Made by a program: the position numbers and the translations under genes. Positions 1-8,985 of a stretch of DNA of 12,574 bases are shown here, one piece after another (the first letter of the stretch is position 1; each line of letters begins with the position of its first letter). Below the pieces are notes generated by a model. It made no database searches. It was given only the letters and a program-made list of their open reading frames with translations, and had not been told where the DNA came from. This DNA is from Candidatus Aenigmatarchaeota archaeon (lineage in GTDB: Archaea; Aenigmatarchaeota; Aenigmatarchaeia; QMZP01): positions 1-12,574 of the forward strand of contig JAWCLA010000021.1 of the NCBI GenBank assembly GCA_039091855.1. Direction: 5' to 3'.

Positions 1-47
1 ACAGGAAGCATTGCCACAAAAGCCACGAGAGCAATCTCATTAAGCAT
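1..47 (-). CDS. Partial CDS running off the left edge; hydrophobic N-terminus, possibly a small multidrug-export-type membrane protein
   Basis: Minus-strand ATG at 47 gives MLNEIALVAFVAMLPV...; TATA-like CTTAAATA lies 21-28 nt upstream (75-68). AMLP resembles the start of the MLP.xELRGxIP motif of COG2426-type proteins, but only about 16 codons are visible. Confidence 0.4.
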   Translation of the reverse strand, partial: MLNEIALVAFVAMLP

Positions 48-140
48 AAGAATATTTTGCACAGGATTATTTAAGGTTGGCAGATTTAAAGAAAAAGAGC
101 AAACCAATTTAAGCCATCAGCCAAAAATCTTTCTGTCATT

Positions 141-1027: not shown

Positions 1028-1348
1028 ATGAATGCAAATAAAACATTTTCGGAAAAAGTTCTTGAAATGGTGAGAAAAATCCCAAAGGGAAGGGTTACCA
1101 CATATTCTGAGATTGCAAGAGCATTGGGAAACCCGAGGGCTTGCAGGGCAGTCGGAAACGCACTTAAAAGAAACAGCAGTCCCGACACAATACCTTGTTA
1201 CAGGGTTGTGAGAAGAGACGGCTCGATTGGGGAGTATTCAAGAGGGAAAAGGGAAAAGCTCAGGCTGCTCAAAAAAGACGGGATAGAAATAATCAAAAGA
1301 AAGATTAATATGAATAAACACTTCCACTCGTTTGAAAATCAGCGATAA
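1028..1348 (+). CDS. ogt: Single-domain methylated-DNA--protein-cysteine methyltransferase (MGMT/Ogt family) with atypical active site
   Basis: IPKGRVTTYSEIARALG, RAVGNAL and IPCYRVV motifs. ATG at 1028 (2 nt after the map stop) is preferred over TTG at 1022. No N-terminal domain. Confidence 0.88.
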   Translation: MNANKTFSEKVLEMVRKIPKGRVTTYSEIARALGNPRACRAVGNALKRNSSPDTIPCYRVVRRDGSIGEYSRGKREKLRLLKKDGIEIIKRKINMNKHFHSFENQR

Positions 1349-2757
1349 ATCTGGAGCCTGTAGTAAATCCTCTTTATCTTGTTGTACGTGTCTGAAATCC
1401 TTGGGTAATCCCTGCCGTTTTTTATTGACTCATATATCGAGAGTATATGGCTGTAAAGCCTTTTTGCCTCTTCTATGTCGCCGTTGTCTATGCACCTGTT
1501 GCACTGCTCCATAAGATTGGATATTCCATCAAAGCTCATATCATCATCTACCTTCTGTTCCATCCTCGGTACCTCAACGGTCATTGGTTTTTCCTTTACA
1601 GGAGGCTTTTCGGATTTTTTTTCAGGTTTAGAAGCGACAGATATAGGAACCTGAAAGCCTTCCTTAATTTTCTGGATTTCCGAGACAAGCGCAGAAATCT
1701 CCTTTGTTTTTTCCTCCCTGAACTTCTCAAATTCCTCTTTCAGCGCTTTCATAGACTTCTCATAATCCTTTATCTCCGAAAGCTTCCTGTTTATCTCGTC
1801 AATCCTTGACTTTCCCTCCTTTGCAAGAAGCTCCTTTGAGCCGCCCCTTCTCAATGACTCCACAAGATCGTCCACTATGTCTTTTATTGCCTGTATTCTG
1901 TCATTAAGGTCCCTCTCGATCTGCTCGAACCTGTCATCGAGCTTCCTGAAGTCATCCTTGCTGACGGAATTCTCGACCTTTGCCTCCAGCATGTCTATGG
2001 ACTTCATCAGGTCGTGCATTGAGTCAGAGCTGAACTCTATTTTGTCCCTGTACTGATGGAACTCTGCCATCTTTTCAGAAAGCTCGGAGAACATGCTCTC
2101 TATCTTTGAAGCGGTCTTCGTAACTTCCTTCTTGTCCTCCTCTATCTTCTCCATTTTTTTGGTTATGGTGGCAGAAAGAGCTATAATGTTTTTTATGTCC
2201 TTCACCTTTTCCATCACAGAAACCACGTCAGCCATGTTCTTCTTGATATCGGAAATTTTTGCATCAAACGATTCAACCTTTGCAGCAAGCTTCTCTATCG
2301 CGTCTTCCTTCTTGTCAAGCTCTGCCCTTATTTTCTTCGGCTGGACTTCCTCGAACATCTCCTTTATCCTTGTGAAGCCTGTTTCCATCTGGTTGAAAAC
2401 CTTTTCCTTCTCTAGTATTGCTGACCTGAGCTCACCTATTTCCTCACTCAGTCTGGATATCTTTTCCTCAGTAACCTGCCTGAGACCTTCCATTGTCTCA
2501 ATCTTCGCGTTTATCTTCTCTATGCTCATCAGAATCTCATCTTCAGAGCTTTTTCCAGAAATCTTATCAAGAAGCCCCTTGGGTTCAGGCTCCCTTTCCT
2601 TCGCCTCTATTTTCGACTCCTTTGGCTTTTTTGAAAAAATACCTCTCAATCCCTTCCTTTCCCTCTTTTCGATTTCATCAAACTCCTCGGGGGTTATTAT
2701 GTTTTCCTCCTCCGGTATGTCCTCAACCTTCTTGTCCTTCTGCTTTGGCATATTCAA
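1339..2757 (-). CDS. Long E/K-rich coiled-coil protein with a Pro/Lys linker and small C-terminal helical domain; function unknown
   Basis: 472-aa ORF with heptad periodicity over most of its length; SD-like AGGAGGGGG at 2776-2768; start TTG 2757 or ATG 2751; 3' end overlaps the convergent ogt by 10 nt. Confidence 0.85.
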   Translation of the reverse strand: MNMPKQKDKKVEDIPEEENIITPEEFDEIEKRERKGLRGIFSKKPKESKIEAKEREPEPKGLLDKISGKSSEDEILMSIEKINAKIETMEGLRQVTEEKISRLSEEIGELRSAILEKEKVFNQMETGFTRIKEMFEEVQPKKIRAELDKKEDAIEKLAAKVESFDAKISDIKKNMADVVSVMEKVKDIKNIIALSATITKKMEKIEEDKKEVTKTASKIESMFSELSEKMAEFHQYRDKIEFSSDSMHDLMKSIDMLEAKVENSVSKDDFRKLDDRFEQIERDLNDRIQAIKDIVDDLVESLRRGGSKELLAKEGKSRIDEINRKLSEIKDYEKSMKALKEEFEKFREEKTKEISALVSEIQKIKEGFQVPISVASKPEKKSEKPPVKEKPMTVEVPRMEQKVDDDMSFDGISNLMEQCNRCIDNGDIEEAKRLYSHILSIYESIKNGRDYPRISDTYNKIKRIYYRLQIYR

Positions 2758-2823
2758 AGGGATGGTGCCCCCTCCTTTCTACTTTATTATTTGTTTCGGA
2801 CTAATAAATTGCTTCACCTGTTC

Positions 2824-2839
2824 AAAATATGCTTATAAG
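2824..2839 (+). promoter_or_regulatory. Putative BRE/TATA promoter for the two-small-gene operon
   Basis: AAAATATG followed by CTTATAAG at 2832-2839, in the AT-rich divergent intergenic region. Confidence 0.4.
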
Positions 2840-2905
2840 TAACGAATTCCATATAACATAATAAAAGTAAAAACAAGCGATAGTTTAACAGTAGGAGGTA
2901 TATAA

Positions 2906-3046
2906 ATGCCACAGGCTTACTGCGTAAGATGCAAGAAAAACGTTGAGATAAAGAATCCGCAGAAAGTTAAGCTGAAAAACGGAAAGCCAGCGACGAAGGG
3001 TGTTTGCCCCAACTGCTCAACAAGTGTTTTCAGGATAGGCGAATAG
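2906..3046 (+). CDS. 46-aa basic Cys4 zinc-ribbon protein (DUF5679-like); not in ORF track
   Basis: MPQAYCVRCKKNVEIKNPQKVKLKNGKPATKGVCPNCSTSVFRIGE; CxxC...CPxC; SD AGGAGGT at 2893-2899, 6 nt before the ATG; matches the recalled YCVKC..KNG.PA.KG.CP.C...FRIG pattern. Confidence 0.88.
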   Translation: MPQAYCVRCKKNVEIKNPQKVKLKNGKPATKGVCPNCSTSVFRIGE

Positions 3047-3075
3047 TCAAATTTTTAAAAAAGGAGGTGTAAAAA

Positions 3076-3240
3076 ATGCCAATGCCAAAGGCAGGGGACG
3101 AATTGCTTTTCTTTGATGTGAAGGCAAAAAAGAAGTTCAAGTCAAAGAACTGGAAGATCATAACAAAGAAAGGCAGGAAATTCGCTGTAGCAAAAGCCCC
3201 GTCCGGGATTGATGCTTACAGGATTCTCGGAAAGGCGTGA
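3076..3240 (+). CDS. 54-aa basic CC1-like (crenarchaeal chromatin protein 1 family) putative nucleoid protein; not in ORF track
   Basis: MPMPKAGDELLFFDVKAKKKFKSKNWKIITKKGRKFAVAKAPSGIDAYRILGKA; 13 K + 2 R versus 4 acidic residues; SD AAGGAGGTG at 3061-3069; matches the recalled CC1 pattern L.F.D.KAK..F...FAVAK.P..GI..YR.LGK. Confidence 0.82.
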   Translation: MPMPKAGDELLFFDVKAKKKFKSKNWKIITKKGRKFAVAKAPSGIDAYRILGKA

Positions 3241-3274
3241 AAGGCTTTTACCTTTCCGATCGATTTTTTTCTTT
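3227..3274 (+). terminator. Hairpin plus T-tract terminator after the small-protein operon
   Basis: TCGGAAAGG (3227-3235) pairs perfectly with CCTTTCCGA (3251-3259), with an inner TGAAA/TTTTA stem, followed by T7 at 3264-3270 and CTTT. Confidence 0.6.
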
Positions 3275-3294
3275 CATTTATAGTTGTTTCTATA

Positions 3295-4107
3295 TTAACC
3301 AAGCCCTATAGCTGCATAAGCCACGACAGAGGAGAGGTCCCCTGTCACATCGCCGGAATTTGTGTAACTCAGTAACTCGCCTTTTTTCACCCCCAAAGAC
3401 TTTGCCGCTGCCATAGCGACCGCTATTGGCCCATAGCCGCACACTGATGCCCTGTTCCTTTTCAGGGTTTCAAAAAATCCCTTTAAGTCAAGCATTAATA
3501 CCCTTTCTATTGCCTCCATATCAAACTTCTTTGCCGATTTCGCAGGTATGTAATGAGAGAAGTCAGAGCTTGCGACAATGTTTACATCCCTCTCTTTCAT
3601 TAGCCTTCCCAAGAAATTCCCAAGGGACGCGCATTTTTTGAGAAAACTTTCAGAATAGCCTTCGTTCATTATGCAGACAGGAACAAAGCCAAAACTCCCA
3701 AACCTGTATTGCAGAAACGGCAGCTGAACTTCAATAGAGTGCTCAGAGGCGTGAGCCCAATCATCATCCTCAGCCAGACCTGCCTTAACGATCTCTGACG
3801 CTGTTTTTGAATCCACCTCAATGTCACCGAGAGGGGTTTTCCAAACACCTCCTGTCATAACGGAAAACTCCTGCCCCATACCTGTGTGGTTGGGACCCAA
3901 AACAACAAAGGTTTTTGCAGGTTTTAGTGAGCCAACCGCGAATGCCGCGCCAAGCCCTGAATACACATATCCTGCATGAGGCGATACCACAATCCTGTAT
4001 TTTTGGCTCGGGCTTGCCTTCGAGAAAAGTTCCTTAATCTGGTTTGAAAGCCTCGCCTTGTCAGAGGGGTAGAACATTCCCGAAACCACAGGATTTCTCG
4101 TTTCCAT
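3295..4107 (-). CDS. amrB: MEMO1-family protein (AmmeMemoRadiSam system protein B)
   Basis: R.PVVSGMFYP, SPHAGYVYSG, LGPNHTG, EHSIEVQLPFLQ, ASSDFSHY, SVCGYGPI and YTNSGDV..VVAYA motifs. Confidence 0.95.
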   Translation of the reverse strand: METRNPVVSGMFYPSDKARLSNQIKELFSKASPSQKYRIVVSPHAGYVYSGLGAAFAVGSLKPAKTFVVLGPNHTGMGQEFSVMTGGVWKTPLGDIEVDSKTASEIVKAGLAEDDDWAHASEHSIEVQLPFLQYRFGSFGFVPVCIMNEGYSESFLKKCASLGNFLGRLMKERDVNIVASSDFSHYIPAKSAKKFDMEAIERVLMLDLKGFFETLKRNRASVCGYGPIAVAMAAAKSLGVKKGELLSYTNSGDVTGDLSSVVAYAAIGLG

Positions 4108-5734: not shown

Positions 5735-6631
5735 ATGCCAGGAGAAATCGCGCTTCTCGGGGATTCTGATGACCAATTTCTGACAGATGTTTTTAACATA
5801 CTGAAGGGAAAGAACCTTCCCGTAAGCATATTGAAATTTTCCGATGAGGAAATACCATTCAACTACAGGTACAGGGTTCTTGTTGACAGGGCAAGCTACT
5901 GCGACTACTACCTGAAGTCAATGGTGAAAAACTACTCCTTAAAGGGAACGTATGTGATAAACAACCCATTTTCCAACATATGCGATGACAAGATAACAGA
6001 ATTCAACATGTGCCAAAAGCTCGGTATACCCTATCCAAAGACTGTGGTTTTGCCAAAGACCAACACGGAAATGGACACGAGCGACCAGATAAGCCTTCCC
6101 AACTTGGACCTGGTTTTTTCAAGACTAAGGTTTCCCATAGTTCTTAAGCCTCACGACGGCTATGCATGGGACAACGTTTCGGTCGCAAACACACCAGATG
6201 AGGCAAAGGGAATTTACGAGTCCCAGAAAAACAGGATGGTTCTTCTCGCGCAGGAGATGGTAAAGCCAAAGACATATTACAGGGTTTATTATTTTACCAA
6301 GAGGGAGCCTGTTTTTGTCAGGTACCTGCCAAACGAAAGGAGGTATGAAAAAAGCGACTATTCCGACATAAAGGGAGTGATGCACCTCATAAGGAATTAT
6401 ATGATAAGGCTTAACACAGCTTTGGACTACGACTTCAACGCCTGCGAGTGGGCGATTGATGAGAACAACAACCTTTTCCTCATAGACGCTTTCAACGAGA
6501 CCCCTGAACTTGGGCCTGACATACTACCTGCCGAATACTATCAGGCAATACTGGAAAGGTTCGTAGGTGTGATAGAGGACAGGCTCCACTCAAATGATCT
6601 TAACAAGTGGCCTTTCGTTTTCTCTCCTTAG
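5735..6631 (+). CDS. ATP-grasp (RimK/glutathione-synthetase-like) carboxylate-amine ligase
   Basis: VLVDR, GTYVINNPF...DDK, LGIPYPKTVVLP, FPIVLKP, AQE and LIDAFN motifs. Confidence 0.85.
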   Translation: MPGEIALLGDSDDQFLTDVFNILKGKNLPVSILKFSDEEIPFNYRYRVLVDRASYCDYYLKSMVKNYSLKGTYVINNPFSNICDDKITEFNMCQKLGIPYPKTVVLPKTNTEMDTSDQISLPNLDLVFSRLRFPIVLKPHDGYAWDNVSVANTPDEAKGIYESQKNRMVLLAQEMVKPKTYYRVYYFTKREPVFVRYLPNERRYEKSDYSDIKGVMHLIRNYMIRLNTALDYDFNACEWAIDENNNLFLIDAFNETPELGPDILPAEYYQAILERFVGVIEDRLHSNDLNKWPFVFSP

Positions 6632-8362: not shown

Positions 8363-8985
8363 TTGGAAGGACGGCTTTATGAAATTGGCTTAAGCCGTCA
8401 ATCTAAAAACGTCTTCAAGCGCAACAAGAAGCCAATTCTGACCAATCGTGTCAGCACTGATAACCAATGCAAGGTTGTCCCTCGGGCAAACAGGTCTATT
8501 GCTTTAACTAATGTCTACCACGTTTCGGTCAGGAAGTATCACAGGGCATTGAGAAAGCTGCTTTATGGGATTAAGCCAAAATACAGGACAATGATTGCAG
8601 TTGATGAGACAAAGCTGAAGGTCAACGGAAGGCTCGTTATAGTCTACGCGGCAATAGACGTTGTCACCCAAGAGATATTGGCTATCAGGATAATGCCTGA
8701 GAGTAGCGAATTCCAGACCTATAGTATCTAGCTCATGTTGTTATATTTTTCGCCGTTAATTTGTGATACAGATATTGTTTTCAAAAGGCTAAAAAAGTTT
8801 AAGTCGCTGCTATATACTAGACCTGTTAATGCAGGAAGTTCGCAGGATGCATTGGGAGAACCAAGGTTTGACATACAGGGAACCTTGGTACACAAAATGG
8901 AGCTTATTTGAATAGCGGCATAGAAAACCTCCAGGCTTTTCTCGAGGTTTTTGTGGGGCTGTATAAACTTGAAAAGGGCTTTTAA
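8363..8985 (+). pseudogene. IS6-family DDE transposase remnant
   Basis: Fragments in several frames: VFKRNKKP; NARLSLGQTG (frameshifted); RTMIAVDETKLKVNGRLVIVYAAIDVVTQEILAI; then LMQEVRR/CIGR/LTYREPWY (degenerate D.GPWY) after ~8826; then IENLQAFLEVFVGLYK...stop. The segment expected to carry the catalytic Glu (RN.VER.F) is missing. Confidence 0.85.
8722..8819. mobile_element. 98-bp MITE-like insertion nested in the IS6 transposase
   Basis: TIRs TAGTATCTAGC (8722-8732) versus the reverse complement of 8809-8819, TAGTATATAGC (10/11). Flanked by GACCTA (8716-8721) / GACCTG (8820-8825). Transposase homology stops and resumes at these borders. Confidence 0.6.

Follow-up and report, generated by a model that had tools for sequence, protein, structure and literature searches.

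How are two very small neighbouring proteins related when one carries the four cysteines of a zinc ribbon and the other carries none? The question is raised by a 12,574-nucleotide (nt) stretch of DNA from a Candidatus Aenigmatarchaeota archaeon (contig JAWCLA010000021.1), the whole of which is termed the window here and to which all positions refer. Two short open reading frames (ORFs) of the window, orfA and orfB, follow one another on the same strand, and both lie where an initial annotation had placed them (table 1). Here, we assign orfA to the family DUF5679 and orfB to CC1, a family of archaeal DNA-binding proteins. The explanation that accounts best for the evidence, and that we regard as probable, is that CC1 and DUF5679 are distant homologues, that CC1 is a zinc-free derivative of a DUF5679-like ribbon, and that members of two families separated by an ancient split now stand side by side in what is probably a bicistronic locus.

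Family membership of orfA and orfB

The Pfam model of DUF5679 (PF18930) matches orfA with 58.4 bits against a cut-off of 27 (expectation value, E, 7.4e-16), over positions 1–40 of the 40 in the profile, and by this match orfA is a full-length member of the zinc-ribbon family. Of its four cysteines, C6, C34 and C37 show no variation among 57 relatives of orfA, and at least 90% of these also have C9. The two CxxC knuckles, which lie at the β1/β2 and β4/β5 turns, are predicted to bind a single zinc ion round which the protein would fold. Because of its fold, its charge (isoelectric point, pI, 9.8) and its relation to CC1, it may bind nucleic acid through the sheet face equivalent to that of orfB, a role that we propose with less assurance than the one given to orfB below. 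In three other DUF5679 relatives of orfA (P0155, P0173 and P0194), aspartate replaces the second cysteine (C-V-K-D-K or C-V-R-D-K), a partial replacement of ligands within the zinc family. One thaumarchaeal DUF5679 record carries the source name 'DNA topoisomerase I (TopA)', and the DUF5679 literature that was located concerned, in the parts available, eukaryotic viral elements.

orfB has no match in Pfam (DUF5679 included, E ≤ 10) and none in NCBIfam, which holds no model that matches proteins named CC1. BLASTP aligns orfB over 51 residues with P0305 (35% identity, E 1e-9), whose entry bears the RepID G4RKF6_THETK and the name 'DNA binding protein, CC1 family'; G4RKF6 is the Thermoproteus tenax Cc1 reference of Hocher et al. 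(PMC7613761). A hidden Markov model (HMM) built from orfB-type sequences alone matches proteins named CC1 at 63–71 bits, and exact look-ups name the matches from the order of a Pyrobaculum metagenome-assembled genome (MAG) either 'DNA-binding protein CC1' or PaREP4. By this homology orfB is a CC1-family protein, and the mention of CC1 in the initial annotation was apt. Across 47 relatives of orfB, residues F12, D14, K16, F21, A37, A39, P42, G44 and R49 are invariant; orfB has no cysteine, and six aromatic residues to the two of orfA.

CC1 is said to have been described by Luo et al. in 2007 (J Bacteriol 189:403) as a crenarchaeal chromatin or DNA-binding protein of T. tenax. The available text of PMC4200833 portrays it as a 6-kDa, monomeric, basic and β-rich protein that is highly produced in T. 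tenax and binds both single- and double-stranded DNA, and reviews state there that its sequence is not similar to those of Sul7 and Cren7; properties of the T. tenax protein are also given in Table 1 of PMC7613761. orfB resembles its homologue in T. tenax in size (6.07 versus 6.37 kDa) and pI (10.4 versus 9.9), in being cysteine-free and aromatic-rich, and in being β-rich, which for orfB is a property of the predicted structure. It differs in having a shorter β3/β4 loop and in its host, which is not a crenarchaeote but an archaeon of the DPANN type whose assembly measures 0.69 Mb. The gene is present here once, in contrast to the one to seven CC1 matches per genome in the Pyrobaculum-order sample. 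Judging from CC1, orfB would coat or bend single- and double-stranded DNA irrespective of its sequence, and would number, with Alba and the histone-fold proteins, among the nucleoid-associated proteins of its host. Genes for Alba and for two histone-fold proteins are present in the host genome, and Cren7 was not found in the host assembly, which is 84% complete.

The family of orfB is clearly delineated. A word-index search yielded 91 members, a full scan with phmmer 77 representatives at the 50% clustering level, and a scan of species genomes 28 loci, to which the Pyrobaculum MAG contributed one. In several longer proteins the CC1 domain forms the C-terminal part (P0235, P0245, P0262, P0267, P0240, P0284 and L061:2761-3252; also P0226, P0256 and P0260). 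Some of these fused domains follow a conserved coiled-coil N-domain, while others follow membrane segments and precede Lys-rich tails; P0260 has a weak helix-hairpin-helix match beside its CC1 domain (E 0.015, under the Pfam cut-off). Such fusions support a role linked to nucleic acids or the chromosome. Some 90% clusters of small proteins also hold unrelated long members (insect calcium ATPases, glucose-6-phosphate dehydrogenase), which look like clustering artefacts. Two further occurrences of the CC1-type motif F-A-V-A-(K/E)-(A/S)-P-(S/N)-G were judged to be chance: one in a myxobacterial ORF of 311 amino acids (L064:3001-3057, Myxococcota MAG) and one in mannosylglucose phosphorylase (PDB 3was_A, E 0.4).

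Probable kinship of CC1 and DUF5679

The initial annotation had aligned orfA and orfB with each other, a claim that holds at the level of the families and fails for the single pair. When 11 members of the families are aligned by MAFFT without guidance, C6 and C9 of orfA come to stand opposite D14 and A17 of orfB, C34-P35 opposite A41-P42, and F42-R43-I44 opposite Y48-R49-I50. All profile–profile comparisons with hhalign place Y/F-C-V-K-C-K-K of the first knuckle on F-Y-D-V-K-x-K-K, while at the C-terminus G-K-P-A...C-P-x-C-G-T-x-V-F-R-I-G falls on G-R-x-F-A-V-A-K-A-P-S-G-x-x-x-Y-R-I-L-G. The strings quoted in the annotation are present in the translations, and the register that it gave them, with an aromatic-R-I at both C-termini, is the one reproduced by MAFFT and hhalign.

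The hhalign signal rises with alignment depth, from P 0.2 to P 3.6e-4. With 155 against 121 sequences the comparison gave P 0.02 over 46 columns and, once trimmed, a score that 9 of 300 column shuffles reached. With 237 CC1 against 181 DUF5679 sequences (the intermediate protein P0261, described below, left out of both), P fell to 3.6e-4 over 43 columns, at an hhalign probability of 37%; in its trimmed form this comparison gave P 0.005, its score was reached by 2 of 400 shuffles, none of them with more than 27 aligned columns, and a reversed profile used as a control gave P 0.12. Measured in this way, the similarity between CC1 and DUF5679 does exceed chance at the family level, but modestly. 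orfB thus aligns collinearly with a family all four of whose ligands it lacks.

The result that we find most telling for the proposed kinship is a set of sequences intermediate between the two families. P0261, a protein of 45 amino acids from ENA, is matched end to end by a CC1 HMM (45.9 bits) and by a DUF5679 HMM (25.4 bits), both built without it, and its score against the Pfam model of DUF5679, 27.0 bits, is exactly the cut-off of 27. At the four ligand columns of a joint alignment it has C, C, H and C, and it resembles CC1 in strand 4 and at the C-terminus; among 68 CC1-type sequences scanned with the Pfam DUF5679 model, it is the only one to match.

Cross matches are found in both directions. 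The top non-self matches of the DUF5679 HMM are two members of CC1, P0271 and P0279 (E 0.0044 and 0.01), in a database of 15,864 sequences in which the first own-genome six-frame decoy appears at E 0.093. Conversely, two of the three best weak matches of the CC1 HMM are four-cysteine DUF5679 proteins from two genomes of the window's class (L032 and L006, E 0.0027 and 0.0036; first own-genome decoy, 1.7). Both have ends of the CC1 type (...F-K-I-L-G-K-S and ...Y-R-I-L-G-K-A), and the C-terminal Y-R-I-L-G-K-A of L006 is identical to that of orfB. DUF5679-type proteins make up 30 of the top 50 weak matches of the CC1 HMM and 197 of the 15,864 sequences in the database, and the CC1 profile also cross-matches four-cysteine DUF5679 proteins of bacteria of the Candidate Phyla Radiation (CPR). 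P0279, the CC1 member most like DUF5679, is a Pyrobaculum paralogue with a Gly/Arg-rich tail, from a genome that is described below (G151).

The predicted structures point the same way. AlphaFold2 models orfA with a mean pLDDT (predicted local distance difference test) of 86.9 and five strands (residues 3–6, 11–14, 16–22, 28–33 and 40–44), and orfB with a mean pLDDT of 87.5, no helix and again five strands (10–14, 19–23, 26–31, 34–40 and 46–53), the strands being alike in order and spacing. The lists of PDB structural neighbours of the two models have 29 of 50 entries in common; Cren7 heads them, at the top or tied for it, and the NrdR zinc ribbons 7p37_A and 9fzf_A are present in both. Residues 1..46 of orfA align to 7..50 of the Cren7 chain and residues 5..54 of orfB to 3..52, ranges that imply the register of the initial annotation at both ends. 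Judged from strand order and neighbour lists, the two models show the same predicted fold, which would be a small barrel of the zinc-ribbon or Cren7-like kind. Among 30 matches in the ESM Atlas, the sole Pfam-named set was a cluster with 40% DUF5679 members (rank 15; score 0.83, below the lead level of 0.9). Foldseek gave no PDB match to the orfB model at E ≤ 0.001, and PDB searches with the two family profiles found nothing meaningful by sequence (best E 0.4 and 0.08), so that no solved structure was matched to the CC1 family in this way.

The alternative to be taken most seriously is convergence, in which CC1 and DUF5679 are unrelated and share a five-strand β architecture and a Lys-rich composition, their common motifs having arisen by chance or through similar function and their adjacency being coincidental. 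Several observations weigh against homology or count in favour of this alternative. BLASTP finds no alignment of orfA with orfB at E ≤ 100, and shallow alignments gave hhalign E 0.2 over only 24 columns. Five alignment variants were tried, which makes the best P somewhat optimistic, and the probability assigned by hhalign is never above 37%. An iterative local search from the Thermoproteus CC1 converged after seven rounds with 267 matches and recruited no four-cysteine protein. The HMM cross matches are weak, with E values from about 0.003 upwards among some 16,000 sequences, the matched sequences are related among themselves, and their enrichment may in part reflect a shared Lys-rich composition. 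P0261 is a singleton on two short contigs for which a word-index search found no relative besides itself, and it may have arisen by recombination between neighbouring genes or through faulty assembly. DUF5679 is an uncharacterised family, an approximately 40-residue CxxC...CxxC domain. Finally, members of the two families are neighbours at only a few of the loci surveyed.

Convergence nevertheless fits poorly with a similarity that runs collinearly through 43 of about 46 columns when shuffled profiles never exceed 27, and with a protein that suits both HMMs over its whole length, with C, C, H and C exactly at the ligand columns. Nor does it readily explain cross matches that stand above all own-genome decoys in both directions, or a seven-residue C-terminus shared to the letter by orfB and a four-cysteine DUF5679 protein. 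We therefore consider convergence unlikely and retain distant homology of the two families as the better account.

Distribution of the families and nature of the proposed change

Across 151 sampled genomes of the window's class, DUF5679 is present in 40. The CC1 profile matched five, and in two of these (G058 and G144) the match falls on a DUF5679 gene, leaving cysteine-free CC1 in three (G000, G137 and G088). In a 41-genome sample of the order of the Pyrobaculum MAG, CC1 is present in 20, DUF5679 in none and Cren7 in 39. The CC1 carriers of that order have between one and seven matches each, the best per genome lying at approximately 1e-18 to 1e-21 with one exception (1.4e-8); the Pyrobaculum-labelled MAG itself (G151) has seven CC1-family matches (L065–L071). 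Three MAGs labelled Thaumarchaeota have one CC1 and one DUF5679 gene each, on different contigs. The range previously described for CC1 is out of date: records labelled Woesearchaeota, Nanoarchaeia and Thaumarchaeota also hold cysteine-free members, as do two genomes of CPR bacteria. The latter come from a sample of 101 genomes of a CPR class (L138:391-594 in G252, and L137 in G195), in which five other genomes have four-cysteine DUF5679 proteins with CC1-like ends; either the CC1 family crosses domains or these bins are contaminated. Supplementary Table 1 of Hocher et al. lists, in the part available, jackhmmer 'CC1' matches in many Thaumarchaeota and in Candidatus Nanobsidianus (PMC7613761). 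The idea that its thaumarchaeal 'CC1' rows of 47–48 amino acids are DUF5679 proteins drawn in by jackhmmer was not adopted; cluster look-ups had no accession in common with those rows, and the local iteration from T. tenax CC1 brought in no four-cysteine protein.

Within 3 kb of flanking sequence, a DUF5679 gene lies near CC1 at 4 of 28 contig loci (L047, L050, L051 and L053); a few others, L039 and L062 among them, have too little upstream DNA to judge. At all four, the CC1 protein is 80–81% identical to orfB and its gene is preceded on the same strand by the DUF5679 gene, the two being approximately 50–276 nt apart by the ORF calls made here. The same layout occurs in G137, from the genus of the window, and the closest named records with this gene pair are MAGs labelled Candidatus Aenigmatarchaeota. 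Adjacency is thus a lineage-local feature, perhaps kept for co-expression. A different arrangement is found in a related genus, where all five sampled genomes have two DUF5679 genes approximately 250 bp apart (L010, L012, L016, L018 and L026, in G044, G023, G100, G082 and G058), one copy canonical (58–66 bits) and the other diverged (34–47 bits). The three diverged copies that were read (from G058, G023 and G100) keep four cysteines and form a distinct subfamily with the tail ...R-E-G-M-W or ...K-E-G-M-W.

The loss of zinc between the two families is quite likely and would be ancient. An ancient divergence is indicated because orfB is closer to the CC1 of another phylum than to orfA and because the families have separate ranges. 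The ancient paralogues of the initial annotation therefore survive as families that are probably distant cousins with an ancient split, and not as a 'snapshot' pair within one genome, given that orfB stands nearer to the Thermoproteus protein than to its neighbour and that only close relatives of the window share the adjacency. That zinc was lost, and not gained, is our inference. In orfB the invariant aspartate D14 and small residues would take the place of the zinc ligands, and its aromatic residues would presumably stabilise the core in place of the metal, so that the route would be one of lost chelation and a stronger hydrophobic core, as published for Cren7 and Sul7.

That those proteins arose from zinc ribbons which ceased to chelate metal, with a stronger hydrophobic core and an SH3-like outcome, is in print (Kaur, Iyer, Subramanian, Aravind 2018, PMC5906684). 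The initial annotation had treated such an origin as known for both Cren7- and CC1-type proteins, which is correct for the former; the accessible text of the same paper names CC1 once, in its conclusions, without deriving it from a zinc ribbon, and does not name DUF5679. The likeness of the present case to Cren7/Sul7d would lie in the replacement of zinc knuckles at the β1/β2 and β4/β5 turns, in the rise in hydrophobic content and in the SH3-like fold that results. In both cases cysteine-bearing and cysteine-free forms coexist; coiled-coil fusions, CdvA-like in Cren7 (PMC5906684), are common to Cren7 and CC1. The sequences themselves are unlike: the Pfam Cren7 model (PF11520) matches neither orfA nor orfB among matches listed to E 10, and hhalign against an alignment of 27 Cren7 sequences gave P 0.008 over 22 columns for CC1 and P 0.13 for DUF5679. 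A parallel in kind is offered by the C-terminal repeats of type IA topoisomerases, in which C4 zinc-ribbon repeats (Topo_C_ZnRpt) and cysteine-free repeats (Topo_C_Rpt) have been described (PMC9369019). Here too zinc-ribbon and cysteine-free counterparts coexist in nucleic-acid-binding proteins, with the difference that the repeats sit within a large enzyme.

Two further explanations concern the pair itself. Ribosomal proteins have zinc-sparing paralogue pairs, one with cysteines and one without, and two proteins of the same predicted fold, one of the zinc type and one zinc-free, encoded side by side, might suggest that orfB stands in for orfA when zinc is scarce or that the two bind each other. 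Unlike the ribosomal pairs, orfA and orfB are not close paralogues, give no pairwise alignment and belong to separate, wide-ranging families, each found without the other in most sampled genomes. The locus has the look of one operon with a strong ribosome-binding site for each gene, which would imply joint and not alternate expression, and CC1 has been described as monomeric (PMC4200833). Interchange under zinc limitation and a heterodimer, both raised by the initial annotation, found no support, and we hold this explanation to be improbable. It is scarcely credible that orfB arose from orfA by recent tandem duplication and shed its cysteines within this lineage. The two genes do stand next to each other on one strand, 29 nt apart, and tandem DUF5679 pairs occur in the related genus (G023, G044, G058, G082 and G100), but orfB has orthologues at 35% identity in Thermoproteus, relatives in Thaumarchaeota- and CPR-labelled records and no similarity to orfA by BLASTP, and the second DUF5679 copies that were read there keep all four cysteines in a subfamily of their own.

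The locus and its implications

The features of the locus are collected in table 1. The shared strand and the short spacer suggest a two-gene transcript and, judging from this layout, orfA and orfB probably form a small bicistronic operon. A Sigma-70 promoter scan gave no sites and is not relevant to an archaeon.

Table 1. Features of the orfA–orfB locus and of the surrounding window.
Feature	Position	Strand	Remarks
Shine-Dalgarno-like AGGAGGT	2893..2899	+	6 nt before the orfA start codon; sequence reading
orfA, DUF5679 zinc-ribbon protein	2906..3046	+	46 amino acids, 5.1 kDa, pI 9.8
Predicted zinc ligands of orfA	C6 2921-2923, C9 2930-2932, C34 3005-3007, C37 3014-3016	+	DUF5679 CxxC pairs
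Spacer, 29 nt, with T5/A6 run	3047..3075	+	sequence reading
orfB ribosome-binding site GGAGGTG	3063-3069	+	inside the 29-nt spacer
orfB, cysteine-free CC1-family protein	3076..3240	+	54 amino acids, 6.07 kDa, pI 10.4 (10.39)
Ligand-column residues of orfB	D14 3115-3117, A17 3124-3126, A41 3196-3198, S43 3202-3204	+	DUF5679 zinc-ligand columns
T7 run, possible archaeal oligo-T terminator	3264..3270	+	24 nt past the orfB stop
Memo-like gene, convergent with orfB	3295-4107	-	Pfam
Glu/Lys-rich coiled-coil protein, 472 amino acids, divergent from orfA	1339-2757	-	sub-threshold Pfam matches only
ORFs of 185, 298 and 122 amino acids	4370-4927, 5735-6631, 8363-8731	+	no Pfam family at E ≤ 0.001

The neighbouring genes of the window are, by Pfam, unrelated housekeeping genes; besides the Memo-like gene and the 472-residue coiled-coil protein they include an M24 peptidase, a protein with an MGMT-type DNA-binding domain, a protein of the metallo-β-lactamase fold, an EamA transporter and an RsmB/F methyltransferase. 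Comparison of the 472-residue protein with the coiled-coil N-domains of fused CC1 proteins (L061 and P0262) gave E 0.14 and 0.087 and showed no relation. The host assembly comprises 689 kb in 38 contigs, with one copy each of orfA and orfB. DNA of the locus is carried by hot-spring metagenomes of two studies, one of which is possibly its source; for positions 2600–3500 the listed data sets are all DNA and include no RNA.

A search of the literature, which left most subscription journals outside its coverage, found no paper that links CC1 with DUF5679 or with zinc ribbons. The proposed link between CC1 and DUF5679 is what is new here; both families were already known, as was the principle, from Cren7 and Sul7, that a zinc ribbon can give rise to a chromatin protein. 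A broader reading, which we hold to be possible rather than probable, would unite the two in one superfamily, with DUF5679, found in archaea (DPANN, Thaumarchaeota and Thermoplasmata) and bacteria (Chloroflexota and CPR), as what survives, zinc included, of the ancestral form of CC1 and as a so far unrecognised, very widespread small protein that binds the nucleoid or nucleic acids. In that event, archaeal chromatin proteins would have emerged from zinc ribbons on at least two occasions, once for Cren7/Sul7 and once for CC1, or all three would descend from one ribbon lineage.

If CC1 and DUF5679 are indeed distant homologues, CC1 would gain a fold and an origin, as the zinc-free relative of a named zinc-ribbon family, and the passage from zinc ribbon to SH3-like chromatin protein would extend to a third archaeal chromatin protein. 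DUF5679, which is present in bacteria as well, would gain its first testable function, the binding of nucleic acid. The pair of orfA and orfB would offer a convenient matched set for comparing a fold stabilised by zinc with the same fold stabilised by its core.

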